Assembly (NCBI GenBank): GCA_016176845.1 | Contig: JACOWJ010000016.1 | Location: forward strand, 1-25,876 | Reading direction: 5' to 3' | Length of the DNA stretch: 25,876 bases | Source: Nitrospinota bacterium | GTDB taxonomy: Bacteria; 2-12-FULL-45-22; JACOWJ01 | In this document: positions 7,180 through 25,466 of the stretch, piece by piece | How positions within the stretch are numbered: position 1 is the stretch's first letter | How the letters are laid out: each line of letters starts with the position of its first letter | Translations under genes and position numbers: made by a program | Notes under the pieces: model-generated | Told to the model about the DNA's origin: nothing | Databases searched by the model: none | The model's input: the letters and a program-made list of their open reading frames with translations, nothing else

Positions 7180-7276
7180 AATCGCATAGGAATTTCCATT
7201 TTTAAGTGGCTAGAGGCTAGGGGTTTGCAAAAGTTCTTCTTCACTAACCCCTAGTCCCTAATCCCTAACCCCTAAC
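7180..7276 (-). repeat. TAGGG-type palindromic repeat element, copy 1, in minus orientation. It carries the terminal AATGGAAATTCCTATGCGAT module.
   Basis: The reverse complement, ...ttaggggttagggattagggactaggggttagtgaagaagaacttttgcaaacccctagcctctagcc...aaaaatggaaattcctatgcgat, aligns with 10399-10503. Confidence 0.65.
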
Positions 7277-7315
7277 TTGAGAGAGGTTTCGAGGGTTTCG
7301 AGCTTCCAGCGAGCC

Positions 7316-7618
7316 ATGCCGAGGATCATCCCTACAGATCGCCATACATTAGATGAAGTTGCCCAGGCCGTGGTCATGGGGGAGCGGGGCTTGGGGCATG
7401 AGTTGGACCGGATCGCTGACGATATGGCCAGGTTGATGCTGAATCGGTTGGCGGCATCTGGTGCCCCTGGCTTTCATCGGGTTGCGCGAGAGCAATGGTA
7501 CGCCCCCCGCCACTGGCAGGCCATCTCAGCGCGTTACAGCGCTGATATGCTGAAGGCGATTCTGTCGCGGGTGGACAAATACCTGGCGGCCTTCGCGCAG
7601 AAGGCAAAGGATGCATGA
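7316..7618 (+). CDS. Small protein of about 100 aa, translationally coupled to the downstream nucleotidyltransferase. It is a putative antitoxin or partner. The start codon is uncertain.
   Basis: The TGA stop at 7616-7618 overlaps the ATG of the next ORF at 7611. No recognisable domain was found. Upstream of the start lies a 9-bp tandem direct repeat, ggtttcgag x2 (7286-7303). The protein is MPRIIPTDRHTLDEVAQAVVMGERGLGHELDRIADDMARLMLNRL... Confidence 0.4.
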   Translation: MPRIIPTDRHTLDEVAQAVVMGERGLGHELDRIADDMARLMLNRLAASGAPGFHRVAREQWYAPRHWQAISARYSADMLKAILSRVDKYLAAFAQKAKDA

Positions 7619-8243
7619 GCTTCGTAGCGATGACATGGATGCCTTCTTCCGCGCGTTGGCGAGGAAATTGCCCTGTCGCGTGAAAATTATTGTGACCGGA
7701 GGGGCAGAAGGGCTGCTCCTGGGCTCGACGCGCCCCACCCGCGACATTGACTTCGGCATCCTCCTCCGCGCGGGTCCTGACGAGCAGGCAGCCACCTGGG
7801 AGGCAGTCGAATCTGCCATCATGGAGGCGGCGGAAGAAACGGGCGTAACCGCACAATATGCCCAGGACATCGACCGCTGGTCGTCCGTTGCGGTCCCCCG
7901 ATATGACCTCCACACGCGGTTCTACCGGCGATTCGGGTGTGCCTATGTCCATCTGTTGGAACCAGCGTATTGGGCGGTTTACAAGCTGGCACGCTATCTG
8001 GACGCGGACGTTGCAGATTTGATCGCGGTGTTACGGACGCAGGGAGTGCCACCACGACAACTAGCCAAAGTGTGTGGGAAGGCGTTGCGCTCCAGCCCGC
8101 GATCATCCTCATTATTCCTGTTTCGCCGGCATGTGGAACACTTTTTCCGCGAGCACGGTCCGGCCATTTGGGGTCAAGGCTTTGACCCTTGTCGGGCGAT
8201 CGCCGCTTTTCACCATGCAGCGGGGATCCAGGAGCGGCCCTGA
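7611..8243 (+). CDS. AbiEii/DUF1814-like nucleotidyltransferase, a toxin-like component of a type IV TA or Abi-like module.
   Basis: The N-terminal motif IIVTGGAEGLLLGSTRPTRDIDFGILL matches the AbiEii hallmark GGxAxxLxxGxxRxTxDIDF (a pol-beta NTase GS...DxD signature). It also contains RRFGCAYVH (R-x6-H). Confidence 0.5.
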   Translation: MHELRSDDMDAFFRALARKLPCRVKIIVTGGAEGLLLGSTRPTRDIDFGILLRAGPDEQAATWEAVESAIMEAAEETGVTAQYAQDIDRWSSVAVPRYDLHTRFYRRFGCAYVHLLEPAYWAVYKLARYLDADVADLIAVLRTQGVPPRQLAKVCGKALRSSPRSSSLFLFRRHVEHFFREHGPAIWGQGFDPCRAIAAFHHAAGIQERP

Positions 8244-8694
8244 TCAACTATCCATTTACCAAATGGAAGCCCATGTCGGTCAGGATGATCATTTTTTGTG
8301 CCTTCTCAATAAATCGGGGCACAACCGAAAATTCCTCCGGAAGACTTCATATTTTTTCAATGGGTTAGGGGTAGAGGTTAATCGAGTTGCCCCGGATTTT
8401 TGAGAAGATACGAAGAAAGTGTAAATAAGGGAGAAATAACTCAAGAGGCAAAAGAAGGCAAATCAATCGCAAGAAAGTCGATAGTAAAATAAAGCCAAAG
8501 AGGAAAGAAAGAAAAGAAAAACTCGGCCTAACGACGTAATGGCAGCCGCGGCAACCTTTTCCCGGACGGTTGGCTCTCTCCCTGTCACATCTTGCTTTAG
8601 GGTCAGTAGTTCCTGCACGGTCGCTTCCAACCTTTTCTCACTGCCGAGAAAGCAGGTCCCATGAGGCCGAAGTGAATCTGCGAAAGAGAATCGA

Positions 8695-9084
8695 GTGCCC
8701 GACAAGAGCTTGAAAGACAGGATTGCCATCGTAGGCATCGGGGAAACCGAATTTGTCAGGGCTTCTGAGAAGAGCCTGGAAGAGCTCGTCATGGAGGCCG
8801 TTCTCAAGGCGATTGAGGATGCAGGCCTCTCGGTGCAGGAAGTCGATGGTCTGGTCACCGATGCCACCATCATGTGGCCGCGGATTAAAGCGGAAGATGT
8901 GGGTCGCAACCTGGGAATAGCGCATCGCACGTTCTCCGCCTGTATGTCGCTCGGGGGCGCGGGGGTAGTGGGTGCTCCCCTGCTGGCGGCTGCCGCGATT
9001 GACCAGGGTCTGGCCAGGAACATCGTGTGCTACTTCGGGGTTGACTGGGGCTCGGCGTCCGGGTATCTCGAAAGGAGGGATCGA
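8695..9084 (+). pseudogene. N-terminal fragment of about 125 aa of a thiolase-like (SCP-x/BbsB-type) protein. It lies in frame directly upstream of the AKR gene.
   Basis: [50 protein letters not shown]...[43 protein letters not shown] is thiolase N-domain-like. The remaining approximately 260 aa of a thiolase are absent. Confidence 0.5.
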
Positions 9085-10071
9085 ATGCGACGCGCAAGCT
9101 TGGGGACGAAGGGGCTTACGGTATCCGCGATCGGGCTGGGCTGCATGGGGATGTCACAGTCCTATGGCAAGGCCGATCTTGCCGAGTCCGAACGGACGCT
9201 GCGTCGAGCGGTGGAGCTGGGGATCGACTTTTTCGATACGGCAGACGGCTATGGCTGGGGACACAACGAGCAACTGGTCGGACGGGTGCTCGGCTCGATC
9301 CGCCATGAACTGAAGATTGCCACCAAGTTTGGCATGGTGCGATTGCCGGGGGGCAAACGGAGCGTCAACGGTCGGCCGGAGTATGTGCGGCAAGCGTGTG
9401 ATGCCAGCCTTTCGCGGCTCGGGATGGAGGTGATCGATCTCTACTACCTGCACCGCAAGGACCCGCAGGTAGAGATCGAAGAGACGGTCGGCGCCATGGC
9501 GGAGCTCGTCACGGCGGGCAAGGTCCGGTATCTCGGATTGTCGGAAGTTTCTGCCGCGACGCTGCGCAGGGCCTGCGCCGTGCACCCCATTGCAGCGGTG
9601 CAAAGCGAATACTCCCTCTGGACACGGGACCCGGAATCCGGGGTGCTGCCGGCCTGTCGCGAGCTGGGGGTGGGGTTTGTGCCGTTCAGCCCGTTGGGCC
9701 GCGCGATACTGACCGGCCGCCTGGTATCGACCGAGGGCCTGGACGAGCAAGACATGCGGCGCACCATGCCGCGGTTTCAAGGGGAGAACTTCGAGAAGAA
9801 CCGGGAGCTGGTCGCCCGCGTCTCGGCCCTGGCAGAGCAGAAAGGCTGTACGGCGGGTCAGCTGGCGCTGGCCTGGCTGCTGGCGCAGGGCGACGACATC
9901 GCCCCGATCCCCGGCACCAAGCGCGTCCGCTATCTGGAGGAGAACGCCGCGGCGGTGGACGTGGTGCTGTCGGCGCAGGAAGTGGCGCACCTGAGCGAAC
10001 TGATGGCGCCCGGGGTGGTGTCGGGTGCCCGTTACGCCCCGGAAGGCATGTCCTTGCTGGATCGGGATTGA
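9085..10071 (+). CDS. Aldo/keto reductase (AKR) family oxidoreductase of 328 aa.
   Basis: [69 protein letters not shown]...[44 protein letters not shown] lies 6 nt upstream of the ATG at 9085. Confidence 0.85.
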
Positions 10072-10207
10072 CCTGGAGATGGGGCGGCATGGGGGCTTCC
10101 ATATCGATGGAACCTCACCCTCTCCGCTTCGACTGGCATTCGAGGCCGCCCGGCCATTCCCGGGCCCTTCGACCATTTTCGCACGAGGAGGCAACCGCTT
10201 GCGACCT

Positions 10208-10378
10208 GTGAGCGCTTCGAGACATTCGCCCATCGGCATCCTGGGGGCCATGCCCGAGGAGACCGAACCCTTCCTGGAGACCCTGGAGGGGAGCCAATCG
10301 CAGCCAGAGGGGAGGTTCCGGTTCCACCGGGGGACCTACGGGGACCGGGAGGCCATCGAGTGCTATGAGCTCCCCTGA
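10208..10378 (+). pseudogene. N-terminal fragment of about 50 aa of a PNP_UDP_1-family nucleosidase (MTA/SAH nucleosidase or futalosine hydrolase-like). It is truncated at the TAGGG element.
   Basis: SPIGILGAMPEETEPFLETLEGSQSQPEGRFRFHRGTYGDREAIEC fits the Pfs/MtnN N-terminus (IGIIGAMxEE...G..F..G...G.EV). A stop follows, and then the repeat begins at 10399. Confidence 0.45.
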
Positions 10379-10398
10379 GAGGAATCTTAAAATGATCC

Positions 10399-10503
10399 AG
10401 TTAGGGGCTAGGGATTAGGGACTAGGGGCTAGTGAAGAAGAATTGTTGCTAACACTTAGCCCCTAGCCCCTCAACAATGGAAATTCCTATGCGATAGATT
10501 TAT
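10399..10503 (+). repeat. TAGGG-type palindromic repeat element, copy 2, full length.
   Basis: agttaggggctagggattagggactaggggctagtgaagaagaattgttgctaacacttagcccctagcccctcaacaatggaaattcctatgcgatagatttat. It has tandem TTAGGGN heptamers on the left arm, with their complement on the right arm. Confidence 0.7.
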
Positions 10504-10538
10504 CAGGCGGCCTGGCGTTGCGTGGACCAGAAAGGAGG

Positions 10539-11936
10539 ATGGAAGTGACCCATTCGGCGAAAGCAAAGGGAGGAGCGGCGGTGCTCCTCCTGCTCGCCTG
10601 CCTCCTCTTCACCTTGGAGGCGAGGGCCGGCATGGACGAGCGCGTGGTGGAGACGGTCCTCTCCAACGGCATGAAGGTGATCCTCCTGGAGAACCACAAG
10701 GCTCCCATGCTCACCTTCCAGGTATGGTACCGTTTGGGCTCCCGGAACGAGGTATGGGGCAAGACGGGCCTCTCTCATATGCTCGAACATATGATGTTCA
10801 AAGGAACCCAGAAGATCGGCCCCGAGGAATTCTCCCGCATCATCCAAGAACAGGGGGGAGTGAACAACGCCTTCACCTCGCAGGATCTTACCGCCTACTT
10901 TGAGAACCTCAGCGCAGATCGGGTCGACGTGGCGATCGAGCTGGAGGCGGACCGGATGCGGAATCTCCTCCTCCGAGAGTCGGACTTCCGCACGGAGCGC
11001 ATGGTGGTGATGGAGGAGCGGAGGCTTCGCACGGAGGACAGCCCCAAGGCCTATCTCTCGGAGCAGGTAGAGGCCACGGCGTTTCAGACATCGCCCTATC
11101 ACTGGCCCGTCATCGGCTGGATGCGGGACCTGGCCGATTTGACCCTGGAGGACCTGAAGGCTTACTACCAGGCCCATTACAACCCCAGCAACGCCTTCCT
11201 GGTGGTCGTGGGAGACTTCAAGAAAGAGGCGCTCCTGCCGAAGATCGAGCAGGCCTTCGGAGCCCATTCCTCGGGGACGGCGCCCAACCAGGAGAAAAAC
11301 GTTGATCCCCCTCAGCTCGGAGAGCGCAGGGTCGTGGTGCAGAAGGAGGCACGGCTCCCCTTCCTGGTGATGGGCTATCATGTCCCCAACCTGCGAGAGC
11401 CGGATAGCTACGTGCTGGAGCTGATCGCTGCCCTTCTCGCCAAAGGGAAAAGCTCCCGGCTTTACCAGTCCCTCGTCCGGGAGAAGCGACTTGCGCTGGA
11501 TGTTGCGGCCGACCATTCCCTGCTCTCCCGGGACCCCAATCTCTTCTCTTTTACTGCCACCCCGCTTCCCGGCAAAGAGGCGGCTGAGGTGGAGCGGGCT
11601 CTGGACGAGGAGATCGCGCGGCTCCAGCGGGAGCCCGTGGGGAAGTACGAACTGGAAAAGGCAAAGAACCAGCTCGAGGCCGCCTTTATCTCCGGACAGG
11701 ACGCGATCTTCAAGCAGGCCATGCTCCTGGCCCAGCACGAGATCGCGCTCGGCTGGAAGGCGATCGACCAGTACCTCCCTTCCATCCGGAAGGTCTCTCC
11801 CGAGGAGATCCAGCGGGTGGCGAGCCGCTACCTGATCCCCCAGAACCGCACCGTGGGGGTCCTCGTACCCCTGCCACCCAAAGAGGAGAAAGCTCCGCAG
11901 CCCGGATCTCCCGTCCAAAAACAACCTGTCAGGTAA
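10539..11936 (+). CDS. M16 (insulinase/pitrilysin) family zinc peptidase, the catalytic subunit, with an N-terminal signal peptide. An alternative GTG start lies at 10545.
   Basis: HMLEHMMFKGT is the inverted zincin HxxEH motif. Signal-like sequence is AAVLLLLACLLFTLEARA. GGAGG lies upstream. Confidence 0.85.
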   Translation: MEVTHSAKAKGGAAVLLLLACLLFTLEARAGMDERVVETVLSNGMKVILLENHKAPMLTFQVWYRLGSRNEVWGKTGLSHMLEHMMFKGTQKIGPEEFSRIIQEQGGVNNAFTSQDLTAYFENLSADRVDVAIELEADRMRNLLLRESDFRTERMVVMEERRLRTEDSPKAYLSEQVEATAFQTSPYHWPVIGWMRDLADLTLEDLKAYYQAHYNPSNAFLVVVGDFKKEALLPKIEQAFGAHSSGTAPNQEKNVDPPQLGERRVVVQKEARLPFLVMGYHVPNLREPDSYVLELIAALLAKGKSSRLYQSLVREKRLALDVAADHSLLSRDPNLFSFTATPLPGKEAAEVERALDEEIARLQREPVGKYELEKAKNQLEAAFISGQDAIFKQAMLLAQHEIALGWKAIDQYLPSIRKVSPEEIQRVASRYLIPQNRTVGVLVPLPPKEEKAPQPGSPVQKQPVR

Positions 11937-11945
11937 GGAGACCGC

Positions 11946-13361
11946 ATGTTCTTTGTTAGCACATCCCCCCCATTATGGCCGGGACAACCCGGGAAGAAAC
12001 CGGCCCGGAGGTTCCCGTTCCTCAGGAGCCCAAGATTCTCATCCCTTATTGGATTCCTCGTCTATGTCATGCTTGGACTGGGGCTGCTGGAGCGCACCGC
12101 TCTGGCCATACCACCCGTGCAGCGAACGATCCTTCCCAATCAGCTGGTCCTCCTCGTGAGCGAGGAGCACTCCTTGCCCCTCGTTACCCTTCAGCTTCTG
12201 GTGGACGCAGGATCCTGGAGAGATCCTCAAGGAAAGGAGGGGCTGGCCTACGTGACGGCCAACGGGCTCCTCTTGGGGACCTCAAAGCACAGGGCCACGG
12301 TATTGAACGAACTGCTCGATTTCATCGGGGCTTCCCTGGACGCCTCGGGGGGAAGGGATTATGCCACGCTGAGCCTCCAAATCCTGAAAAAGGACCTGGA
12401 TCAGGGACTCGATCTCTTCCTGGAGGCGCTCACCCAACCCACCTTCCCGGAGGAGGAGATCCGTCGGGAGATCGAGAAGACGCTGGGGAGCATCCAGGCT
12501 GCTGAGGATCAACCCACGGCCGTTGCGACCAAGGCGTTCCAGAAGGCCCTCTTTCCCTCCGGTCCTTATGACCATCCCGTCGAAGGGACCCGGGACTCCC
12601 TCCCCAAACTCAGCCGTGAACTGCTCGTGGACTTTTACAGGACCTATTACCATCCCAACAACGCCATCCTGGCCGTGGTGGGAGATATCACCCTGGAGGA
12701 GGCCCAGGCCAAGCTCCTCCTTCGGCTGACCGCCTGGCCCCAGGGCAAGATCCCCAAGTCTACGGTCAACCCTCAATTCGCTCAGGGACCTGAAAAGATC
12801 CAGATCGACCGGCCGATCACCCAGGCCAACATCATGATCGGGCATGGGGGGATCAGCCGGGAGAACCCGGACTATTACGCGCTCACCGTCATGAATTACA
12901 TCCTGGGGGGCGGGGGCTTCGCCTCCCGGTTGGTGGAGGAGATCCGGAGCGCGCGGGGACTGGCCTACTCGGTGAGAAGCAGCTTCGATCCGGGCAGGTA
13001 CCCGGGGCCCTTCCAGATCGTCCTGCAGACGAAAAATGCGTCCGCCCGCGAGGCGATCTCCCTCGCCCTGCAGCAGATGGAGCGTCTGCAGAAAGAGATG
13101 GTCTCGGACAAAGAGCTGGAGGGAGCCAAGAAATATCTTGTCGGCAGCTTCCCCTTACGGCTGGGCACCCAAGCCAATCTGGCCGGCCTTCTCGTTCAGG
13201 TCGAATACTACGGCTTGGGCCTGGACTATCCTGAGAGGTACCCCTCCCTCATCCGCTCCGTCACCCGAGAGGACGTGCTGCGAGTCGCGCGAACCTATCT
13301 CCACCCGGAAAGCTGCATCCTGGTCGTTGTGGCCAACCTGAAGGAGGCCAAGCTGGACTAG
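11946..13361 (+). CDS. M16 family peptidase partner subunit. It lacks HxxEH and is probably the non-catalytic member of the pair.
   Basis: The fold and length match the upstream M16 gene, but there is no HxxEH. AAGGAG lies 6 nt upstream of the ATG. The N-terminus is hydrophobic. Confidence 0.75.
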   Translation: MFFVSTSPPLWPGQPGKKPARRFPFLRSPRFSSLIGFLVYVMLGLGLLERTALAIPPVQRTILPNQLVLLVSEEHSLPLVTLQLLVDAGSWRDPQGKEGLAYVTANGLLLGTSKHRATVLNELLDFIGASLDASGGRDYATLSLQILKKDLDQGLDLFLEALTQPTFPEEEIRREIEKTLGSIQAAEDQPTAVATKAFQKALFPSGPYDHPVEGTRDSLPKLSRELLVDFYRTYYHPNNAILAVVGDITLEEAQAKLLLRLTAWPQGKIPKSTVNPQFAQGPEKIQIDRPITQANIMIGHGGISRENPDYYALTVMNYILGGGGFASRLVEEIRSARGLAYSVRSSFDPGRYPGPFQIVLQTKNASAREAISLALQQMERLQKEMVSDKELEGAKKYLVGSFPLRLGTQANLAGLLVQVEYYGLGLDYPERYPSLIRSVTREDVLRVARTYLHPESCILVVVANLKEAKLD

Positions 13362-13482
13362 TACAGCTTGGCGCAAGTTTCTCGCTGGGATTGCGAGAAG
13401 GCCCTCGCCAAGGCCCGAGAGATCTTCCCCAAGGGGCAGGGGGGATGGATAGGTTGGGTCAAATAAGGAGTTGCAAACCCCC

Positions 13483-13511
13483 TTGACTTTCTCCACCTCC
13501 TGCGATATTAT
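13483..13511 (+). promoter_or_regulatory. Sigma70-like promoter candidate: TTGACT, a 17-nt spacer, then TATTAT. It lies about 400 bp upstream of the activase gene.
   Basis: The -35 hexamer is at 13483-13488, the spacer is ttctccacctcctgcga, and the -10 hexamer is at 13506-13511. Confidence 0.4.
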
Positions 13512-13765
13512 GCGCCCATAACCTGCTGCCTCATGTACCGCCTATTTTTCTGCCAGCCTCACTGACGCCAGTTGGCAATACCTTCCGGACGCTTCTCATT
13601 CCGATTCGCATCTGGGGCCGCTCAGCCAGAGAGACTTCGATATTTTTGCAGTAAGTTCTCGCACATGCTCGTTAAAGACCCATGGGGAGGGCCTTCGGGC
13701 GCCTTTATTCGTCATCCCAGGGCGGGTTACGAGCTTGTGGAGCCGGGTTAGACCCAACGGCTTTC

Positions 13766-13866
13766 ATTCGTGTCAACTTAAGGTTTAGTCCTGGGAGCGC
13801 GGCCATCCTGGCCGCTCCTTGCGGGCGGGGGCGCCCGCGTTCCCAGGGGTTAAGTTGACCCGAATA
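13766..13866 (+). mobile_element. MITE-like 101-bp element, copy C. It is flanked by an 11-bp direct repeat CAACGGCTTTC (13755-13765 and 13867-13877).
   Basis: attcgtgtcaacttaagg...ggggttaagttgacccgaata, with the same TIRs and length as copies A and B. Confidence 0.8.
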
Positions 13867-13913
13867 CAACGGCTTTCAACTTACAACGCTCAAAGCATGA
13901 GGAGGGTCAGAAG

Positions 13914-14702: not shown

Positions 14703-14745
14703 GTTGGCTCCCCTGGAGGGCGGGCGGGAAAATCCCCGATGGATT

Positions 14746-14778: not shown

Positions 14779-14796
14779 AAGGGGGAGGGTAGGGAA

Positions 14797-17434: not shown

Positions 17435-17511
17435 GGGGCTAAAGAGCTCGTAGCTCATGGCTCATAGCTATGAGCTACGAGCCATGAGCTAGGGCTAGGG
17501 AATCATTCCCC
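17435..17511. repeat. Imperfect long palindrome carrying CTAGGGCTAGGG and flanked by GGGG...CCCC. It sits immediately after the stop of the preceding gene. It could be a terminator or a variant of the TAGGG repeat family.
   Basis: ggggctaaagagctcgtagctcatggctcatagctatgagctacgagccatgagctagggctagggaatcattcccc. Confidence 0.5.
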
Positions 17512-17815: not shown

Positions 17816-17977
17816 TCGAATAGATTCGCCCTCGTACATAAGGGAAGCCCTCTATAAGGTTTTATCCGGCCTAAACCGGCATAGCCAGGCAGAGTTGACC
17901 GCCCCCCGAGAATGAAACTGAGCTCCAAAGAGACTCGGGCAATTTCACGGTAAAAAATTTCATTCATGGAGGATCGA

Positions 17978-19177
17978 ATGTCGTACGAAATCCCGAGTAC
18001 TTTTGCCAGGCCCGCACCAGGCTTGCGCATCAAAGAAGGTGCTCCTGCCATTCCCCGGCCGACCAAGGAGGAGATTGCCTCTTTTCCCGAGGAGGCGCGA
18101 AAGCTTCTTGCCCAAAACTGGGGCGCGCAGGCGCCCTTGGTGAAGACGGGGCCATATTCTCTGAAGTGGTTGGAAGGAAGACATTTCCTTCTTGCCGGCG
18201 CCACTGGGCCCGGCCTGGGGGGAGCCCTGGCAACCGCGGTCCTAAACCTTCTTGGAGACTCCGGCAGTCTCACCGTCGTTGCCCGAGACCTGACCCGATC
18301 CATCGGGTACGAGACAGGAGTCGCCATGCAGAGGCAGGCAGAGGAGGCCGGCCTCGGAAAGCGATTCCACTGGCTCAACGACGGCCTGGCTTTGGAGGGA
18401 GAAGAGATCGAGAAGATCGTGTCCGCACTCTGGGAGGGAGGCGCGGATCGTGTGCTCTATATCAATACCGTCGCGGCGGCTAGCTCTGGGCTCCTCCCGG
18501 GTTGTCCCCCGGTGTTCGTAAAGGACGTGGACGAGAAAGGGCTTTTTCAATGGCAGCTCTCCCCCCTCAACGAACGAAGCATCGAGGCCACCCGGTTTAT
18601 CATGGGAACGATGGCGGTCCAGTTCCCCCACGAGCTGGAGAAGACCGGCATTCAGGTGGAAGCGACCGCATTCGCTGACTGGCGGGGCAGCCTGGATCGT
18701 TGCAGCCGAGATCCTGCCGCTCCCGAGTACGGCCGGCAAGGCGCATATTCGACAAGTCTCTATCTGCCCAAGGATATCCTCCAGGAGGCCACTGCCTCTG
18801 CCTATGGATCGGGAAAGATCCTCCTCGATATCTTCTTCCCGATCATGAGGACCCGGGCGCTGGGCTTCATTCCCGGGGGTACGACCATGTCTTGTGTTTA
18901 CAACAACCTGATGAAACGGGAAGGCGTGCGTCGGATCGACGTCCCGGAGTTAGCGTTGGCTATGCTGGACCGGATCGGCAGGGCGATCGACCAGGGTGAC
19001 GACAACCCGTTTCCCCGGCTTGACGCCCACGAGGCGCCGCTTGATTTATGGTTCTGCGAAGTGGTCAAACGCCTGAACGAGGACGAGGAGAGCGAGTTCT
19101 ACTTCAAAAGATGGATCGAAGGCAACTGGCGAGTCCTTGCAAAGGGCGATGCAATGCGCAACTTGCGCTTGAAATGA
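17978..19177 (+). CDS. Divergent FabV/TER-family (trans-2-enoyl-CoA/ACP reductase-like) protein.
   Basis: HFLLAGATGPGLGGALATAVL matches the FabV Rossmann segment (RVLVIGASTGYGLAARI). ADRVLYINTVAAAS and GKILLDIFFPIMRTRALG are collinear with FabV blocks. GGAGG lies 5 nt upstream of the second ATG at 17978. Confidence 0.45.
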   Translation: MSYEIPSTFARPAPGLRIKEGAPAIPRPTKEEIASFPEEARKLLAQNWGAQAPLVKTGPYSLKWLEGRHFLLAGATGPGLGGALATAVLNLLGDSGSLTVVARDLTRSIGYETGVAMQRQAEEAGLGKRFHWLNDGLALEGEEIEKIVSALWEGGADRVLYINTVAAASSGLLPGCPPVFVKDVDEKGLFQWQLSPLNERSIEATRFIMGTMAVQFPHELEKTGIQVEATAFADWRGSLDRCSRDPAAPEYGRQGAYSTSLYLPKDILQEATASAYGSGKILLDIFFPIMRTRALGFIPGGTTMSCVYNNLMKREGVRRIDVPELALAMLDRIGRAIDQGDDNPFPRLDAHEAPLDLWFCEVVKRLNEDEESEFYFKRWIEGNWRVLAKGDAMRNLRLK

Positions 19178-19245
19178 TCCCGTCAAAGTGGTAAAGTTAA
19201 GCTACTTTCCGATCGAGACCAGGCGGTAGAGCCGAGGGGACGTGT

Positions 19246-19294
19246 ACTAGTCCCTAGTCACTAAAAAAATGGAATTCCTGGACGATAAATTTAT
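19246..19294 (+). repeat. Partial copy of the TAGGG-element terminal module (ctagtccctagtcac...AATGGAATTCCTGGACGATAAATTTAT). It sits directly at the gpsA start.
   Basis: About 25 of 30 positions match 10476-10503. Confidence 0.5.
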
Positions 19295-20312
19295 GAAAAG
19301 GGTGGCGGTGATCGGGGCGGGTAGCTGGGGCACCACGCTGGCCAATCTGTTGGCCGATCGGGAATTGGAGGTCGGGCTGTGGGTCTATGAGCGCGATCTG
19401 TGCCAGGTGATGATCCAAAAACGGGAAAACCCTCTTTACCTGCCGGGTTTTCCCCTGTCCCCGGGGGTTCATCCTGCTTCCAGCCTGGAGGAGGTTGCGC
19501 GGGGAGCGGAGTCCTTCATAACGGTTTGTCCCTCTCAAACGTTACGGGGCGTCATCGCTGAGTTGGTTCCCTTCCTGCCGTTTCATCCCCTGATCGTTAG
19601 TGCCTCCAAAGGATTGGAAAAGCTTTCGCTCTACACTTGCTCTCAAGTATTGGAGGAGGCCGTTCCAGCGGCCTTGCAACCCAGGATTGCCGTGCTTTCG
19701 GGACCGAGCTTCGCCCGGGAGGTGAGTCAAGGGCATCCCACGTTGGTGGTTGCATCCTCTAAGGAACCCGAAGCGGCCGGGCAGGTTCAACGGCTCTTCT
19801 CCACTTCCGCCTTTCGGGTTTACACCAATACCGACATGTTGGGAGTGGAGTTGGGCGCGGCGCTGAAGAACGTGATCGCGATCGCAGCCGGGATCTCTGA
19901 TGGCCTCCGTTTCGGCCACAATGCCCGTGCGGCCCTGATCACGCGGGGATTGGCGGAGATCGCCCGGCTGGGGGTGGCCATGGGGGCCTCCCCTTTGACC
20001 TTTTCCGGGTTGGCCGGAATGGGAGATCTGGTCTTGACCTGCACCGGAGACCTCAGCCGCAACCGCAGCCTGGGACTTCGGCTGGGACAAGGGCAAAGGT
20101 TGGAAGAGATCCTGCGCGAGATGAAGGCGATCGCTGAGGGGGTAGAGACTGTACAGGCCGCCGTAGCCCTTGGGAGGAGGTACCCGGTGGAGATGCCGAT
20201 CTCGGAGGCGGTCCACGCGGTATTATACGAAGGAAAGAGACCCCAAGAAGCCGTGGCGGAATTGATGGGGCGAGCCCCGCGCCCGGAGTTCGAGGAGTGG
20301 CTGATCGCTTAG
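19293..20312 (+). CDS. gpsA: NAD(P)H-dependent glycerol-3-phosphate dehydrogenase.
   Basis: MKRVAVIGAGSWGTTLANLLA... is the canonical GpsA N-terminus. The length and C-terminal blocks also fit. Confidence 0.9.
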   Translation: MKRVAVIGAGSWGTTLANLLADRELEVGLWVYERDLCQVMIQKRENPLYLPGFPLSPGVHPASSLEEVARGAESFITVCPSQTLRGVIAELVPFLPFHPLIVSASKGLEKLSLYTCSQVLEEAVPAALQPRIAVLSGPSFAREVSQGHPTLVVASSKEPEAAGQVQRLFSTSAFRVYTNTDMLGVELGAALKNVIAIAAGISDGLRFGHNARAALITRGLAEIARLGVAMGASPLTFSGLAGMGDLVLTCTGDLSRNRSLGLRLGQGQRLEEILREMKAIAEGVETVQAAVALGRRYPVEMPISEAVHAVLYEGKRPQEAVAELMGRAPRPEFEEWLIA

Positions 20313-20336
20313 CGGCTTTTAAATTGCCGATGATCA

Positions 20337-20413
20337 AGTTAGGGGGTTAGGGATTAGGGACTAGGGGCTAGTGAAGAAGAATTTTTGCTAATCCCTAGCC
20401 CCTAGTCCCTTAA
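20337..20413 (+). repeat. TAGGG-type palindromic repeat element, copy 4. It has near-perfect arms and lacks the terminal module.
   Basis: agttagggggttagggattagggactaggggctagtgaagaagaatttttgctaatccctagcccctagtccctta. Confidence 0.7.
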
Positions 20414-20457
20414 AATCGGTGTCCATCTGTGTCTCCAACCAAGGAAACGGCGGTACG

Positions 20458-21225
20458 ATGAATTTATCCTCTTTGAAGAAGCTGCTGGAAGAGCTGTACG
20501 AGCAAAAACTGGAGCCCCAACAGGCTTTAAAGCAGTTGAAAAGCTGGCCTTATGAGGATCTGGGCTTCGCCCAGATTGACCACCACCGGAGCCTGCGCAA
20601 GGGCTTTCCAGAGGTGATCTATTGCGAGGGGAAGAGCAAGGAGCAGGTCTGTCAGATCGCCGAACGGATTTTGATGGCAGGCAGCTCTGTCCTGGCAACT
20701 CGGGCCGCTCCCGAGGTGTACGACCAGATGAAGCTGATCGACGGCCGGGCCCAGTATCACCCCCTGGCCCGGACCGTGACCATCGAGGTCCACTCAGAAC
20801 GCCAGGGGACTCGAGGAAGGGTCCTGATCGTGACGGCAGGCACCTCCGATATCCCCGTTGCGGAGGAGGCCCTGGTGACCGCGCAGGTCCTGGGCAGTAC
20901 CGTCGAACGTCTCTATGACGTGGGGGTAGCCGGCATCCACCGCCTGCTGGACAAAAAGGACCAGCTGATGGAGGCCCGTGTGATCGTGGTGGTGGCCGGG
21001 ATGGATGGCGCCCTGGCCAGCGTGGTAGGAGGGCTGGTCGACAAGCCGGTGATCGCGGTTCCCACCAGTGTGGGCTATGGGGCCAGCTTTGGAGGCCTGG
21101 CGGCCCTCTTGACCATGTTGAACAGCTGCGCCACGGGGACGGCCACGGTCAACATTGACAACGGCTTCGGGGCCGGCTACCTGGCCCATAAGATCAACCT
21201 GCTCGGGGAGTTCCCGATAGAATGA
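20458..21225 (+). CDS. larB: LarB: nickel-pincer cofactor biosynthesis, PurE-like pyridinium-3,5-biscarboxylic acid mononucleotide synthase.
   Basis: The N-terminal domain reads DLGFAQIDHHRSLRKGFPEVIYCEGKS. The PurE-like domain reads RVLIVTAGTSDIPVAEEA...VIVVVAGMDGALASVVGGLVDKPVIAVPTSVGYG. Its stop overlaps the larC start (ATGA). Confidence 0.8.
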   Translation: MNLSSLKKLLEELYEQKLEPQQALKQLKSWPYEDLGFAQIDHHRSLRKGFPEVIYCEGKSKEQVCQIAERILMAGSSVLATRAAPEVYDQMKLIDGRAQYHPLARTVTIEVHSERQGTRGRVLIVTAGTSDIPVAEEALVTAQVLGSTVERLYDVGVAGIHRLLDKKDQLMEARVIVVVAGMDGALASVVGGLVDKPVIAVPTSVGYGASFGGLAALLTMLNSCATGTATVNIDNGFGAGYLAHKINLLGEFPIE

Positions 21226-22445
21226 AGATCCTCTATATCGATGCCTTCTCGGGCATCAGCGGGGATATGTTTCTGGGGGCGTTGGTAGACCTGGGCGTGG
21301 ATCTCGCCCAGCTAAAAAACCAGCTGGGCCAATTGGCCCTGCGTGGCTACCAGTTAACCTCGTCGAAGGTCCACAAGAAGGGGCTGGCGGCCACGAAGGT
21401 CGATGTGGAGCTCACGCCAGGGCTCGCCCAGGAGTTCCGCCACTGGCCGGAGATTCGCCCATTGATCTCGGAGAGCACGCTTCCCGAAGCGCTGAAGGCC
21501 GATAGCTTCCGGGTCTTCGAGCGGTTGGTTCAGGCCGAGGCTCGCGTCCATGGGGTTCCGCCGGAAGAGGTCCACTTTCACGAGCTGGCCGTCCAGGACA
21601 CCATCGTGGACATCGTGGGCGCCGTCATCGGAGTCCACAGCCTGGGCGTAGACCGGATCATCTCCTCGCCGCTCAACCTGGGCCAGGGCCGAATTCGAAC
21701 GGCCCATGGGGAATATCCGGTCCCGGGTCCGGCGGTCCTGCAGCTGCTGGTGGGCTACCCGGCCTATTCCACCGACTGCGGCTTTGAGCTGACCACTCCG
21801 ACGGGTGCCGCCATTGCCACCACCCTGGCGGCGGAGTTCGGCCCGCTGCCCGCGATGCGCGTGGCGGGGGTCGGTTACGGAGCCGGCACCCGGGAGCTGC
21901 CCCACTCCCCCAACGTGTTGCGGCTCGTCCTGGGGGAAGCCTCGACCTCCGGGGAGGAGGACCAGGTGATCGTCATCGAGACCAACATCGACGATATGAA
22001 CCCGGAGTTCTACCCCCCAATCATGGAGCGACTCCTGGGGTTGGGAGCGCTGGATGTGGCCCTGACCCCCATCATCATGAAGAAAGGCCGGCCGGGCACC
22101 CGCCTCTCCGTCCTGGCGGAGGAGAAGGACCAGGAAAGGCTCACCCTGGCCCTCTTCGAGGAGAGCTCCACGCTGGGGGTGCGGTTTTATCCGGTACGCC
22201 GCAGGAAGCTTTCTCGCGTCGAGCAGCCGGTCCCCACTCCTTACGGGCCGGTAAAGGTTAAGGTCGGGCTTTCAGACGGCCGGCCTATCCAGCTCGCCCC
22301 GGAGCTGGAGGACTGTTATCGGTTGGCTCGCGAACGCAACCTTCCCCTGAAGGAGATTTACGAGGCGGCCCAGGCAGCGGCTCGGGAGCTATGGAGTAAA
22401 GGGACCCTCCCCGGGAAGCTCCCTTCGGGGCCGGCCGAGGCTTGA
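21222..22445 (+). CDS. larC: LarC: nickel insertion protein (DUF111 family).
   Basis: MKILYIDAFSGISGDMFLGALVDLGVDL is the characteristic LarC N-terminus. The length is about 400 aa. Confidence 0.85.
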   Translation: MKILYIDAFSGISGDMFLGALVDLGVDLAQLKNQLGQLALRGYQLTSSKVHKKGLAATKVDVELTPGLAQEFRHWPEIRPLISESTLPEALKADSFRVFERLVQAEARVHGVPPEEVHFHELAVQDTIVDIVGAVIGVHSLGVDRIISSPLNLGQGRIRTAHGEYPVPGPAVLQLLVGYPAYSTDCGFELTTPTGAAIATTLAAEFGPLPAMRVAGVGYGAGTRELPHSPNVLRLVLGEASTSGEEDQVIVIETNIDDMNPEFYPPIMERLLGLGALDVALTPIIMKKGRPGTRLSVLAEEKDQERLTLALFEESSTLGVRFYPVRRRKLSRVEQPVPTPYGPVKVKVGLSDGRPIQLAPELEDCYRLARERNLPLKEIYEAAQAAARELWSKGTLPGKLPSGPAEA

Positions 22446-22467
22446 AGCCAACGGGGATCGAGGAGAA

Positions 22468-22496
22468 TTGCAACCTTGGTGTGAAAGTGTTATATA
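22468..22496 (+). promoter_or_regulatory. Sigma70-like promoter candidate: TTGCAA, a 17-nt spacer, then TATATA. It lies upstream of the OmpA-family gene.
   Basis: Hexamers are at 22468-22473 and 22491-22496. Confidence 0.4.
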
Positions 22497-22688
22497 GAAC
22501 GTGGAGAGTTCGATGCCACGTTTATCGGGGACTAGTTTGAAAGCCCAATTGGGCCGAGCGCCGGTCGCAAGAAACGATGAACATTTTTTGGCCAAGCTGT
22601 ACCAATAGCCGAAAGGTGGGTTTAGATCCTTAGCCCCGGTTTTTCGTTCGGGGAAGAGGATGGTTAACCTTCAGAGGAGAAAGGGAAG

Positions 22689-23405
22689 ATGAGCGTGCTG
22701 AAGAAGATGACGGCCCTGACCCTGGTGGCCAGCCTGGGAGGTGGCGGTTGCGCCAACTGGCAATGGGGCAAACGAGAAACGGGGGCGGTGATCGGAGCTG
22801 CCGCAGGGGCTGCGATCGGGGCCGCGGGGGCCAAGCGGCAAACCAGAGGGGCCCTGGTCGGAGCCGCCGCAGGGGCCCTGGTGGGCGGCCTCATCGGGTG
22901 GTACCTGGACAACCAGCAGAAGGAAATGGAACAGTTGGCCAGCCAGATCAATGCCCAGCAGCAGACTGCACGACAGCAAGATCAATCCCCCATCAGAGCG
23001 GTACGGCAGGAGGATCAGCTGGTGATCATTATGCCCAGCAGCACCCTCTTCGACACCAATTCCACCCAGCTGCATCCCGGCGCCCAGAACAGCCTGCGAG
23101 AGGTGGCCGATATCCTCAAGCGCTATCCCCACTCCGATGTGATCATCGGGGGGCACACCGACGGCACGGGGACTTCGACTTACAACCAACGGCTCTCCGA
23201 GGAGCGGGCTGATGCGGTCCGGGCCTTTCTGGTGGCCCAGGGGGTAGACCCCAATCGTCTTTCTGCCCGCGGATATGGGGAGACCATGCCCGTTGCCAGT
23301 AACGAGACCACTGCCGGGCGGCAGCAGAACCGCCGGGTGGAGCTTCAGGTTAAGCCTCGGGCGGATGAGCTGGTCAAGGAATACCCGTCCGGCCCTCCGG
23401 CCTGA
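22689..23405 (+). CDS. OmpA-family lipoprotein with an N-terminal glycine-zipper region.
   Basis: Lipobox-like SLGGGGC. Glycine zipper GAVIGAAAGAAIGAAGA...GAAAGALVGGLIG. C-terminal OmpA_C: DVIIGGHTDGTGTSTYNQRLSEERADAVRAFLVAQGVDPNRLSARGYGE...NRRVEL. Confidence 0.85.
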   Translation: MSVLKKMTALTLVASLGGGGCANWQWGKRETGAVIGAAAGAAIGAAGAKRQTRGALVGAAAGALVGGLIGWYLDNQQKEMEQLASQINAQQQTARQQDQSPIRAVRQEDQLVIIMPSSTLFDTNSTQLHPGAQNSLREVADILKRYPHSDVIIGGHTDGTGTSTYNQRLSEERADAVRAFLVAQGVDPNRLSARGYGETMPVASNETTAGRQQNRRVELQVKPRADELVKEYPSGPPA

Positions 23406-23439
23406 AAAGGGAAGAGAAGTTTCCCGGGGTGCGAGTTTA

Positions 23440-23470
23440 AGGGGTGAACCGAATGGTTCACCCCTTTGTG
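23440..23470 (+). terminator. Rho-independent terminator after the OmpA-family gene.
   Basis: aGGGGTGAACC gaat GGTTCACCCCt is a perfect 10-11-bp stem with a 4-nt loop, followed by TTTGTG. Confidence 0.6.
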
Positions 23471-23605
23471 CATCTGATTTAAAACGTTAGCAACCCAGAA
23501 AGGGTTTCCTTGCCCATCTTCGCTCAAAGAAGGGTTTACCGTGAAAATGCCAAAGTCTTGCTGAAGTCCATTTTCATTCTCGGGAGCGGCCAGCTCAGCC
23601 TGGCC

Positions 23606-24727
23606 ATGTCGGTTAGGCTTGCCACACTGCTCGCGGCCCTGCTTGCCGGTTTTTCGATGATGCCCCTCCCCTTGGAAGCAGACGATGGTGCTCGATGGCT
23701 CTCCCAAGAGGTCATTCAAAGGGTGGAGGCCACGATCCTGGAATCTCGAAAGGCCAGAGCCAGGACGGAGGCGAAGATCAATCTGCTCAAACTCCTCCCG
23801 TTGAAGCACCCGCAACCGCCTGAGGGGTTTGCAGTGGCCCTCACGATGATCGACTGGTACAATGCGATCTACCTTTTAAAGATAAAAGGACCGACGGGGG
23901 GCTACCAGGTCGTATGGAACAGCGAGGACGAGGAGCTCCCCCTCCAGAAAGCCGGGCTTCTGGTCAAGGGCTCCTTGATTCAAGAGGACTTCTCCCTGGA
24001 GGACGTAGATGACGACGGAGCGAAGGAGATCTTTTTCGTCTGGCACAAAGGCGGAGGAGAAGGCACGGTAGAAGGAGATTACACGACCTTTTGTCTCTAC
24101 GACCTCCAGAAGAAAGCGCTGTTCGCCATACGGTTCGAACGACAAGCCTGGCCTTATCCGCTCTACCCCATTCCGAAGTTCTCGGCCAATGCCAACTTGC
24201 CCCAAAACAAGACTTACCGGAGTTGGTTGGAGAAGAAGGGCTACGATCTGGGGCTCATCGAGAAGACCACCATCGATCCCGATAACCCCGCCTTCGCCTT
24301 AAGCCTCTGGTTCGCTCAGAACGGGCCCATGAAGAATGGCCCGGTTCAGCTCCGGGAGTATCCTGGCCCGATCCTCTGGGGGACGCCCCTGGAGGCCGAG
24401 GTGTCCGATCCGGGAATCACTTGGAAGGCCTTTCAGAGGGGACCGGTCCTCGGCTACGATCGGGCCAGAGAGGTCTATTATGTGGTCTATGCCCCGGAGC
24501 GCATGCAGCACTGGGCTAAGGCCCTGGTGGCGGATAGCCAATTCCTGTGGATCGGGACTCGGGGCGATGGGCTCATTCGATACGACAAGGCTGCCAAGAC
24601 CTTGAAGCAGATCTTGAAGGCCGGGCCCGTACAGCTGCCCCAATCGATCTCTTCTTTAAGGGTAAAAGGCGACAAGCTCATCATCAACCGCACTCTCACT
24701 CTTTCCCGGGAGTCTCTTTCTCATTGA
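23606..24727 (+). CDS. Hypothetical secreted protein. The start was chosen at the signal-peptide Met.
   Basis: MSVRLATLLAALLAGFSMMPLPLEA|DDG is a classical signal peptide. No recognisable domain was found. The track ORF begins at TTG 23510. Confidence 0.55.
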   Translation: MSVRLATLLAALLAGFSMMPLPLEADDGARWLSQEVIQRVEATILESRKARARTEAKINLLKLLPLKHPQPPEGFAVALTMIDWYNAIYLLKIKGPTGGYQVVWNSEDEELPLQKAGLLVKGSLIQEDFSLEDVDDDGAKEIFFVWHKGGGEGTVEGDYTTFCLYDLQKKALFAIRFERQAWPYPLYPIPKFSANANLPQNKTYRSWLEKKGYDLGLIEKTTIDPDNPAFALSLWFAQNGPMKNGPVQLREYPGPILWGTPLEAEVSDPGITWKAFQRGPVLGYDRAREVYYVVYAPERMQHWAKALVADSQFLWIGTRGDGLIRYDKAAKTLKQILKAGPVQLPQSISSLRVKGDKLIINRTLTLSRESLSH

Positions 24728-24891
24728 GCGCCATTCTCGGTAAGATCCTCACTCTTCTGGTCCGTGGTGCACCTCCCTCCGGAGAATCGCTGGATGGATT
24801 CGTCGACTCGCTCCTTCAGGAGTTCGAGAACTGTCGCCCGGGTCTTTCGGACGACGTAATCGAAAGGAGGAGAGCGGAGGCGGAGAACTTT

Positions 24892-25406
24892 ATGAAACAG
24901 CGCTTTGCCGAGCGCGGCTTCAAGGTCGAGAAGTTGTTGCTCCGGAACTACAAGTACGCGGAGAATTACGAGGGGTCCCTCCGGGAGAAGAAGGTCGCCG
25001 TTCAGCTTACCAAGAAGAACCAGATGGAAAGCCTGGTGAACGAGGAAAAGGCCAAACTGAAGCAAATCGAGTCCTCGGGCAACGCCTCCATTTCGGGATC
25101 TTCGAGAAGCGCGGGCATCAGGAGATCTATCAGCCCGGCGGGGTCTACTTCTTTCTTCCGATCGTAAACAGTTGGAACAGACTTCCCATCTCACAGCAGA
25201 ACCTGTTGATGACCGCCAATTCGAAAGAAGGGGACCGCCCCGTTCCGGACGACGTCACGTTCAAGACCAAAGATGGGAACAACGTCCATATCGACGTGAA
25301 CGTAATGTGGCAAATCGACCCTAAAAAGGCGGGGAAGATTGTCTCGAACGTGGGGACGTCCATTGACGAGATCAAGGAGCGCCTCGTCCGTCCCATCTCC
25401 CGTTAA
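24892..25406 (+). pseudogene. SPFH/band-7 (stomatin/HflKC-like) domain gene with a frame shift near 25080-25095. Its 3' end is truncated at a heptamer-repeat array, and no N-terminal TM segment is present.
   Basis: One frame (25089-25406) reads HFGIFEKRGHQEIYQPGGVYFFLPIV...VTFKTKDGNNVHIDVNVMWQIDPKKAGKIVSNVGTSIDEIKERLVRPISR*, the typical start of an SPFH domain. A different frame reads the upstream coiled-coil-like segment MKQRFAERGFKVEKLLLRNYKYAENYEGSLREKKVAVQLTKKNQMESLVNEEKAKLKQIE. Confidence 0.45.
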
Positions 25407-25412
25407 GCAAGA

Positions 25413-25466
25413 AACCTAACACCTAACACCTAACACCTAACACCTAAAACCTAAAACTTAAAACTT
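25413..25466. repeat. Tandem heptamer array: (CCTAACA)x4, then (CCTAAAA)x2, then CTTAAAA. It lies between convergent genes.
   Basis: aacctaacacctaacacctaacacctaacacctaaaacctaaaacttaaaac. The reverse complement is TTAGGTG-type and is related to the TTAGGGA heptamers of the TAGGG elements. Confidence 0.7.

Follow-up and report, generated by a model that had tools for sequence, protein, structure and literature searches.

The G-rich heptamer repeats of bacteria have been on record since 1990, as the short tandemly repeated repetitive (STRR) sequences of cyanobacteria, and again from 2007 to 2015 (Mrazek; Rehm), without an accepted origin or function. As cited in two later papers (PMC4692102, PMC4679880), Mrazek (2007) found that, of the long simple repeats of prokaryotes, heptamers exceed expectation the most, possibly through polymerase slippage. 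In Xanthomonas and Nostoc, Rehm et al. (2015; PMC4692102) reported heptamers of the sequence GGGAATC and GGGGA(C/T)T, respectively, which are over-represented in non-coding DNA, show a preference for four units, and form G-quadruplexes (G4) in vitro. Each Xanthomonas genome carries 70 to 75 convergent inverted pairs of these repeats, able to form stem-loops, and most repeats are transcribed; no function or regulatory role was identified. The TAACTGA heptamers of Beggiatoaceae, Cyanobacteria, and Bacteroidetes carry stop codons in the unit that confine the repeats to intergenic DNA (MacGregor 2015; PMC4679880). Here we describe a family of hairpins with heptamer arms in a stretch of 25,876 nucleotides (nt), the whole of contig JACOWJ010000016.1 from the metagenome-assembled genome (MAG) GCA_016176845.1 of an uncultured groundwater bacterium of the Nitrospinota (hereafter, the window); within this genome, the comparison was confined to that one contig. 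We consider it probable (at roughly 0.6) that the hairpin is a small, non-coding, non-autonomous insertion element resembling the repetitive extragenic palindromes (REP) and REP doublets forming hairpins (REPIN), or the MITEs (miniature inverted-repeat transposable elements), with inverted arms made of G-rich, G4-type heptamers. At least some inverted pairs of heptamers, the comparisons below show, travel as discrete blocks that have unique loops and accessory modules, which links the literature on G4 simple repeats with that on REP and MITEs.

The window contains three full copies of about 100 to 115 nt, in two forms. The long form (type A) is found at 7170-7280 on the minus strand, where it is flanked by the fragment of a cupredoxin gene (6795-7057, minus strand) and the hypothetical gene HYS70_02100 (start at 7316), and at 10390-10506 on the plus strand, between a truncated open reading frame (ORF) resembling MTA/SAH nucleosidases and an M16 peptidase gene. 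The short form (type B) lies at 20326-20438 on the plus strand and splits gpsA from larB. In the first of these (the 7180 copy), read on the minus strand, the junction CAAG is followed by the G-rich arm TTAGGGGTTAGGGATTAGGGACTAGGGGTTAG (7243-7276), the loop TGAAGAAGAACTTTTGC, a degenerate C-rich arm, the module AATGGAAATTCCTATGCGAT (7181-7200), and a tail that runs to CAG. The second (the 10399 copy) consists of the junction ATGATCCAG, the G-rich arm (10401-10432), the loop (10433-10449), the C-rich arm (10450-10471), the module (10476-10495), and the tail AGATTTATCAG, and the third (the 20337 copy) of the junction GCCGATGATCAAG, the G-rich arm (20339-20371), the loop (20372-20388), the C-rich arm (20389-20410), and a different right module, TCGGTGTCCATCTGTGTCTCCAAC (20416-20439). 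The left junctions, with the consensus ATGATCMAG, end in (C)AAG, CCAG, or CAG. The G-rich arm is made of four to five YTAGGGR heptamers in the order TTAGGGG / YTAGGGA / TTAGGGA / CTAGGGG / YTAG, and Tandem Repeats Finder reports a period of 7 with 3.4 to 4.7 units at each element (units TTAGGGG, CTAGGGA, TTAGGGA, and CTAGGGG). The C-rich arm is shorter (2 to 3 units) and more variable.

These copies have much more in common than short TAGGG units, which bears out the first-pass annotation in its claim of a family of related hairpins with common arms and a common loop. The repeat finder pairs 7170-7280 with 10396-10506 over 111 nt at 85% identity in opposite orientation, 7200-7272 with 20343-20415 over 73 nt at 90%, and 10404-10474 with 20343-20413, also at 90%. 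The three-copy alignment has an invariant core, TAGGGATTAGGGACTAGGGG-Y-TAGTGAAGAAGAA, and all three copies have the 17-nt loop TGAAGAAGAAYTNTTGC (in the alignment, TGAAGAAGAA-YTNTTGC), which is found nowhere else in the contig; the loop pattern occurs 3 times in the window against 0.00 expected from shuffled sequences. The terminal module that had been assigned to two copies is the 20-mer AATGGAAATTCCTATGCGAT (module A), identical in the 7180 and 10399 copies and present exactly twice, again with 0.00 expected from shuffles. The motif TAGGGNNTAGGG, with at most one mismatch, occurs 16 times in the window versus 1.9 expected. Independent slippage at each site is ruled out by the loop, junction, and modules, which are unique and yet common to unlinked copies, and the common loop and flanks indicate that the three copies descend from one another. 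The 20337 copy carries TCGGTGTCCATCTGTGTCTCCAAC (module B) in place of module A, so that each copy has one of two alternative right-hand modules, a mosaic build that resembles the bacterial interspersed mosaic elements (BIMEs). Within the right-hand module of the 20337 copy, TGTCCATCTGTGTC (20420-20433) recurs at 1378-1411 as three tandem 10-mers beside a second, MITE-like family described below (4 matches versus 0.06 expected), as if repeat families had exchanged short motifs in the manner of BIME mosaics.

Comparison with related genomes provides a natural experiment, as genomes 97 to 99.98% identical in the flanks differ in whether they carry the hairpin. The gpsA product of the window is identical to MBI1987133.1, from a MAG labelled “Nitrospinae bacterium” (locus tags HYS70_). 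The best-matching named relative is the “Candidatus Tectomicrobia” MAG GCA_016190115.1, at 76 to 89% nucleotide identity, while the Logan assemblies of SRR12113418, SRR12113422, and SRR12113432 contain sequence 99.7 to 99.98% identical to the window and those of SRR22388208 and SRR22387819 contain strains at 96 to 98% identity. The contigs compared below are L004 (99.98% identical over 4,087 nt), L133 (97.8%), L131 (96 to 97% in the flanks), L132 (85 to 88%), and the more distant L127 to L130 (67 to 70%, with proteins about 70% identical). The comparison of empty and filled sites in related strains, a check suggested in the first-pass annotation, showed two empty sites, one between gpsA and larB (L131 and L004) and one in the gpsA leader (L132). 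The gpsA-larB spacer is 145 nt long in the window, 32 nt in L131, and about 25 nt in L004. In the alignment with L131, a 113-nt block (20326-20438) comprising the junction, hairpin, and module B is missing; in L004, the end of gpsA is followed by a third, element-free allele, GCTTAA-CTGTTGATA-AAGGAAACGG, and in L127 to L130 the two genes overlap by ATGA. The Logan contigs from the source population end at 20311/20312 and restart at 20440/20441; because these breaks coincide with the points of allele divergence, alleles coexist in the population. The same breaks are no proof of a high copy number, as they reflect polymorphism and not repeat count.

The gpsA leader contains a degenerate or partial copy, a 60-nt block on the plus strand (19227-19286). 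In L132, the promoter and leader run directly into AGGAGG-AATATT-ATG, and precisely these 60 nt are absent, which upholds the earlier assignment of a partial copy to the gpsA start. The block holds a short GGGAC/GTCCC stem, a remnant of the C-rich arm (CTAGTCCCTAGTCAC), and a variant of module A (AAATGGAATTCCTGGACGAT); fold prediction gives it no stable structure. Because the module A variant lies within the insertion, module A belongs to the unit that was inserted and was not a target already in place. A conserved sigma-70-like gpsA promoter (TTGAAA-17-TAAAGT; 19169-19197, plus strand) is retained in relatives and lies upstream of the block, untouched, which places the block outside the promoter and within the 5' leader. 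It separates the former Shine-Dalgarno sequence (AGGAGG in L132, AGGCGG in the window) from the gpsA ATG at 19293. With three alleles in three close genomes, this junction appears to mark a hypervariable insertion point. As a side observation, the segment of L131 directly 5' of the gpsA start AATTTATG (positions 1-113 of that contig) has no relation to the window or to L132.

At the 7180 site, L133 has a different heptamer array, TATGAGCTACGAGCTATGAGCTAA, of the AGCTCAT type seen at 17435-17511 (below), in place of the G-rich arm, and this array ends at the same junction as the 7180 copy, TT(G/A)AGAGAGG. The homologue of window positions 6795-7057, the cupredoxin gene, lies in L133 on the opposite side of two hypothetical genes; because this DNA is relocated, the 7180 copy would mark a rearrangement breakpoint. 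For the 10399 site, relatives of the M16 peptidase are at most 76% identical, and the single contig fetched was non-syntenic upstream, so that this site yields no empty-site comparison. All three copies are flanked on both sides by (C)AAG/CAG, and the empty alleles have a single AAG; the spacer alleles are mosaic, and the boundary of this repeat is ambiguous. Because whole blocks are present or absent among near-identical genomes, with empty sites and with overlapping genes in the outgroups, the elements are recent insertions of 60- to 113-nt blocks that are polymorphic among near-identical genomes. Relatives have no heptamer arrays over about 25 kb of syntenic DNA, compared with five in the window, and a lineage-specific expansion of heptamer elements is supported by this count.

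The claim that every copy is intergenic holds relative to intact genes. The insertions landed in intercistronic or leader DNA: the 10399 and 20337 copies lie 20 to 25 nt 3' of a stop codon and 40 to 45 nt 5' of the next start, with the 10399 copy beginning 12 to 23 nt past the stop of the nucleosidase-like ORF and ending about 40 nt before the M16 peptidase GTG at 10545, and the C-rich strand of the minus-strand 7180 copy is 40 nt ahead of the start at 7316. The first-pass annotation had placed most copies immediately 5' of gene starts and had supposed an effect on promoter regions. Neither is supported: the copies are intercistronic or in a leader, 40 to 45 nt before the next start, a sigma-70-like promoter scan found no site inside any element, the gpsA promoter is intact, and divergent spacers are depleted across the wider class of arrays (see below). 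Orientation relative to the flanking genes is not fixed, with two copies on the plus strand and one on the minus strand. Module A was also considered as a promoter, by eye, on the basis of TCAACA-18-TAGATT (8 of 12 positions, below the threshold) and a GG-N10-GC spacing of the sigma-54 kind, and both candidates were dismissed as too weak to claim.

Both truncated neighbors that had been pointed out, the nucleosidase and SPFH fragments, are genuine, and the cupredoxin gene fragment beside the 7180 copy is a third. The nucleosidase fragment matches only positions 1 to 43 of the 233 in PF01048, and its homology ends within about 40 nt of the 10399 copy. The SPFH gene ceases to be homologous to its intact counterpart in the Tectomicrobia relative about 10 nt before the heptamer array at 25412-25464. 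In total, 3 of the 6 heptamer features in the window adjoin gene remnants or rearrangement junctions. The SPFH/Band_7 region itself (24725-25402) is a decayed remnant. It consists of three adjoining pieces (146, 216, and 311 nt), whose counterparts in the Tectomicrobia relative (L005, 4938-6822) are spread over about 1.9 kb with two intact Band_7 genes.

Predicted folding bears out the earlier hairpin claim to a different extent in each copy. The RNA fold of the 20337 copy is strong (-39.9 kcal/mol, z = -4.9) and that of the 10399 copy moderate (-40.5 kcal/mol, z = -2.5), but the 7180 copy is weak (z = -1.9). DNA parameters rank the hairpins in the same order; over the RNA and DNA folds, two copies have z values of -2.5 to -5.7. 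A regular-expression scan of both strands for (G3+N1-7)x4 found four G4 motifs in the contig, of which three are the G-rich arms of the elements (7248-7272 on the minus strand, 10404-10428 and 20342-20367 on the plus strand), so that each copy has a four-tract motif, as a matter of sequence pattern, on exactly one strand. Every heptamer element has at least two stop codons in each of the six frames, because every unit brings a TAG, or on the complement TAA/TAG; the G-rich arm has a stop codon at 7-nt intervals. No element coincides with any of the 21 terminator-like sites in the window, and no U-tract follows the elements, whose 3' flanks read TTAAAATCGG and CAACAATGG, so that they are not canonical intrinsic terminators. 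The covariance models of Rfam 15 matched none of the elements, either at the gathering threshold or at E ≤ 1.

Two further loci had been included in the family, and each belongs there only in part. The palindrome at 17435-17511 (no strand assigned), downstream of a LolA-like/DUF1329 gene, is real, with an RNA fold of -45.8 kcal/mol (z = -6.8), but it is built from a different unit (AGCTCGT/AGCTCAT/GGCTCAT and complements, with two CTAGGG units at the 3' end) and constitutes a separate heptamer hairpin family. The locus at 25412-25464 on the plus strand, at the truncation point of the SPFH/Band_7 remnant (25413-25466 in the first-pass annotation), does hold a heptamer array, (ACCTAAC)n with 7.6 units, but as a plain tandem repeat and not a palindrome. 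An independent assembly of the same population (L002, 4973-5026) has exactly one 7-nt unit fewer, and the array is therefore a slipping simple repeat. Both loci have in common with the main elements the 7-nt period and a TAG/CTA core, not the sequence, and may be called loosely related.

The building block is widespread, and the view that TTAGGG-like heptamers in a bacterial hairpin are unusual has to be abandoned; inverted pairs of such heptamers are already published (PMC4692102). Arrays of the form TAGGGNN x4 gave at least 120 matches in GTDB species genomes, across many phyla. Among the matches listed, about half are from cyanobacteria, and other carriers include Planctomycetota, Acidobacteriota, Gemmatimonadota, Brevundimonas, Pseudoxanthomonas, Aliivibrio, and a Brocadiaceae MAG. 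The exact left-arm 20-mer TAGGGATTAGGGACTAGGGG had at least 120 matches in JGI metagenome contigs, compared with a handful expected by chance; those listed come from soil, peat, termite-gut, and sludge metagenomes, along with two IMG/VR contigs. A few (TAGGGTT)n-type matches look like plant or alga telomeres and are irrelevant. By contrast with these arrays, the exact core had no match, as GGGGYTAGTGAAGAAGAANTNTTGC, in 185,579 species genomes (one per species) or, as ACTAGGGGYTAGTGAAGAAGAA, in the JGI metagenomes; module A was not found in viral contigs, and a literature string search with the arm sequences returned only papers on plant telomeres and primers.

Among these matches, the polarity of pairing was counted for arrays with enough flank, taken from the listings of at least 120 matches. 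In a strict test for inverted CCCTA units at 7-nt spacing within 100 nt downstream, 20 of 99 metagenome arrays and 8 of 115 GTDB arrays were positive, with none upstream; a looser test for inverted C-rich units gave 34 downstream versus 0 upstream (metagenome) and 17 versus 1 (GTDB). Inverted C-rich units thus follow about 20 to 35% of the metagenome arrays and 7 to 15% of the GTDB arrays listed, and on these counts the hairpins among the listed arrays always run 5'-G-arm, loop, C-arm-3', on both strands. A measure based on the RNA-fold pairing of each array with its flank was discarded in favor of the motif count because G-rich arrays pair promiscuously, so that real and shuffled flanks were not separated. 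In ORF context, divergent gene pairs are depleted among the matches listed (3 of 65 and 11 of 89) and gene 3' ends are favored, a crude analysis in that any ORF running into an array is closed by it. In filamentous cyanobacteria, TAGGGAA/TAGGGCA arrays lie within recurrent unique flanks, e.g., ...TATAGCGCTACGCGC-(array)-...GTCCTAACCTTAATGCGTAGCGCTATA or ...CTTGAGAAACGCTATA, and by this arrangement cyanobacterial heptamer arrays, too, appear to be embedded in small dispersed elements with inverted termini.

As to mechanism, the insertion element would be copied in trans by an enzyme encoded elsewhere, by analogy most plausibly a single-strand transposase that recognizes hairpins (HUH/Y1, REP-associated tyrosine transposase [RAYT], or IS200/IS605-like). 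It would persist only where stop codons in six frames and secondary structure are tolerated, and recombination between copies could produce the neighboring deletions. Effects on the host would be side effects: uncoupling of the translationally coupled gpsA and larB, displacement of the gpsA Shine-Dalgarno sequence by 60 nt from the start codon, and addition of a G4 or hairpin to the transcripts.

The first-pass annotation had proposed a lineage-specific REP/MITE family. The empty sites, the common loop and flanks, and the absence of the exact core elsewhere agree with that proposal, as does the fact that the copies are short imperfect extragenic palindromes, a feature of REP and REPIN; the diagnostic ends do not. 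Unlike REP, the copies have no GT[AG]G foot, their feet reading CAAG/CCAG-TTAGGGG (GTAG is found only in the AGCTCGT family, at 17445-17491), and unlike MITEs, they have in the long forms an internal instead of a terminal inverted repeat, with modules A and B unpaired at the left end. Other observations likewise weigh against an insertion element. The target-site duplication amounts at most to a possible 3- to 4-nt direct repeat, (C)AAG/CAG. Among the ORFs of the window, searches of Pfam, NCBIfam, and PHROGs revealed no transposase, RAYT, or other candidate mobilizing gene. The copies number only 3.5, all within one MAG contig, where mis-joining at repeats could have occurred; the SPFH/(ACCTAAC)n junction is confirmed by the independent assembly L002, while the arrangement around the 7180 copy is that of the MAG contig alone. 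The Logan contigs are paths through a de Bruijn graph, and the empty allele of L004 is read from its first 40 nt. Folding of the 7180 copy is weak, with z values of -1.9 and -0.8. Finally, conservation is lopsided, which would not be expected of a neutral mobile element and hints that the G-rich arm is constrained or that gene conversion has acted: the 43-nt stretch of the G-rich arm and the 5' part of the loop has 3 variable columns among the three copies, against 10 of 32 elsewhere (Fisher p = 0.011, with regions chosen post hoc).

The last point also counts in favor of the most serious rival, namely that the hairpin or its G4 is a selected cis-acting structure (for mRNA 3' protection, read-through attenuation, translation stop in all frames, or protein binding) and that copies have spread because they are useful. 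A near-invariant G-rich arm and 5' loop half with a drifting pairing partner would fit such a role, as would the single G4 strand per copy, the share of the elements in the G4 motifs of the contig (three of four), the closure of all six frames, and putative binding sites in the form of a CsrA-like GGA in the arm and an Hfq-type (ARN)3 loop, GAAGAAGAA. The preference of the class for gene 3' ends and its avoidance of divergent promoter spacers (also PMC4692102) point the same way, together with the G4 formation and four-unit preference of the sister repeats in Xanthomonas and Nostoc (PMC4692102). Near-identical strains, however, manage without the element at the same sites, and one insertion parts an essential gene from its Shine-Dalgarno sequence. 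The variable orientation, the lack of a U-tract and of Rfam matches, and the absence of a regulatory role in the study of Rehm et al. (PMC4692102) further count against this explanation, and three copies are too few for covariation; we regard it as unlikely. Growth of the arrays in place by polymerase slippage in hypervariable spacers, with homogenization by gene conversion and no mobility, has in its favor the one-unit difference in (ACCTAAC)n between two assemblies, the attribution of heptamer over-representation to slippage by Mrazek (2007), as relayed in PMC4692102 and PMC4679880, the mosaic alleles of the gpsA-larB spacer, and the other unit type at the 7180 site in L133. Slippage cannot, however, make the same 17-nt loop, ATGATCMAG junction, and 20-nt module at three or four unlinked sites, and blocks of 60 to 113 nt are present or absent whole; this possibility thus strikes us as improbable.

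Even less credence is given to break repair, in which both 3' ends of a break would be extended with G-rich heptamers by a templated activity of the reverse-transcriptase or primase kind, followed by head-to-head joining as in telomere fusion. The absolute G-arm-first polarity in two independent samples, among the matches listed, would follow naturally, and so would the recurrence of an identical unit mixture across phyla, the position of half (3 of 6) of the heptamer features of the window at deletion or truncation junctions, and the different fillers at the same junction in near-identical strains. On the other hand, independent synthesis would not yield an identical loop and modules in three copies, the window encodes no reverse transcriptase or primase-polymerase, the polarity is equally compatible with transposase recognition or fold-back template switching, and deletions beside dispersed repeats are more simply due to recombination between copies. 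That hairpins of the form 5'-(N4TAG)n-loop-inverted array-3' are not ordinary transposons but patches at breaks or hypervariable spacers, made in a bacterial version of telomere healing, with the “family” being one template re-used, is by the same token very doubtful. A role as attC-like integron recombination sites that mark gene cassettes is effectively refuted by the empty-site comparisons. ACCTAAC does fit the inverse core RYYYAAC (probably by coincidence), GTTAGGG at the left junction fits GTTRRRY at 6 of 7 positions, and the elements follow ORFs that mostly run one way; but the inserted units are non-coding blocks of 60 to 113 nt and not cassettes, the flanking genes are conserved housekeeping operon genes, the right end has no matching inverse core, and there is no integrase in the window. 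Readings of the elements as CRISPR, telomere, or eukaryotic contaminant were rejected, as the genes are bacterial and syntenic with those of relatives, spacing is irregular, and the elements are not at the contig ends. A small insertion element, REP/REPIN- or MITE-like, therefore remains our preferred explanation.

The contig contains several other repeats. A second small-repeat family is clearly MITE-like, with copies of about 105 to 110 nt at 1400-1505 (minus strand), 2063-2172 (plus), and 13758-13868 (plus) that have 20-nt terminal inverted repeats, TCATTCGTGTCAACTTAAGG...GGTTAAGTTGACACGAATGA; because it occurs in the same contig, this genome evidently tolerates small mobile repeats. Its members have two GC-rich internal hairpins (DNA fold z = -7.7), a three-way mean column identity of 82%, and 92% identity in the closest pair, and two of them lie just 5' of gene starts (2364 and 13914). 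An inverted pair of GTCATTCCCGCGAAAGCGGGAATCCAG is found at 6708-6778 (also at 4983-5012), adjoining the 3' end of the cupredoxin remnant; one strand of this repeat type translates as the spurious peptide WIPAFAGMT, which recurs in many unrelated bacteria. An inverted repeat of about 86 nt with 79 to 80% identity connects 17869-17954, upstream of a gene for a 403-amino-acid (aa) hypothetical protein, with 23535-23618, at the 5' end of a gene for a 405-aa protein; on comparison, the two proteins were rejected as paralogues. In the stretch covering 125-1384 (minus strand) and 1500-2060, one ORF joins the C-terminal part of a T2SSE ATPase to a T2SSF domain, with an MshEN fragment standing apart close by, which suggests that pilus or secretion genes have been disrupted. 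Beside these genes is a low-GC (44%) island of HepT-like and MazE/AbrB-like toxin-antitoxin ORFs. Two tandem paralogues of family III CoA-transferase (3254-4948 and 5280-6623) account for many short repeats spaced about 1672 to 1675 nt apart, which reflect gene duplication and not a mobile element.

Set against the known systems, the hairpins of the window have something of each. Like bacterial MITEs (PMC3184786), they are about 100 nt long, non-coding, and multi-copy, with a long hairpin, insertion polymorphism between strains, and a possible short flanking direct repeat. Like REP, BIME, and REPIN, which are mobilized by RAYT, a Y1 HUH enzyme (PMC3333891, PMC3116915), they are short palindromes outside genes, located at 3' ends or between cistrons, in which the hairpin is the unit, they are mosaic with other motifs, lineage-specific, and variable in locus from strain to strain, and they do without the classical terminal inverted repeat and target-site duplication; unlike in those, the arms are heptamer arrays and not a single imperfect palindrome. 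The STRR and TAACTGA heptamers (PMC4679880) are likewise intergenic tandem heptamers, patchy across phyla, with stop codons in the unit and often near start codons, but, unlike the elements described here, they are almost always direct (one inverted case in 170 sets), have no predicted structure, lack the richness in G, and have not been described as blocks polymorphic for insertion. The closest resemblance is to the repeats of Rehm et al. (PMC4692102), with tandem 7-nt units that contain a G3-4 tract, typically four units (the minimum for a G4), and an intergenic position mostly between co-directional ORFs, and the three copies match the placement rules published for those repeats exactly. 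They differ in the unit YTAGGGR, which has a stop codon on both strands, in the unique loop, junction, and accessory modules common to the copies, in the whole-block presence or absence between near-identical strains that is typical of a dispersed insertion element and not of a locally variable simple repeat, and in the host, a MAG related to Nitrospinota and Tectomicrobia. The hairpins of this contig are thus no rarity: they form a local family, apparently mobile, that belongs to a class of heptamer repeats widespread in bacteria.

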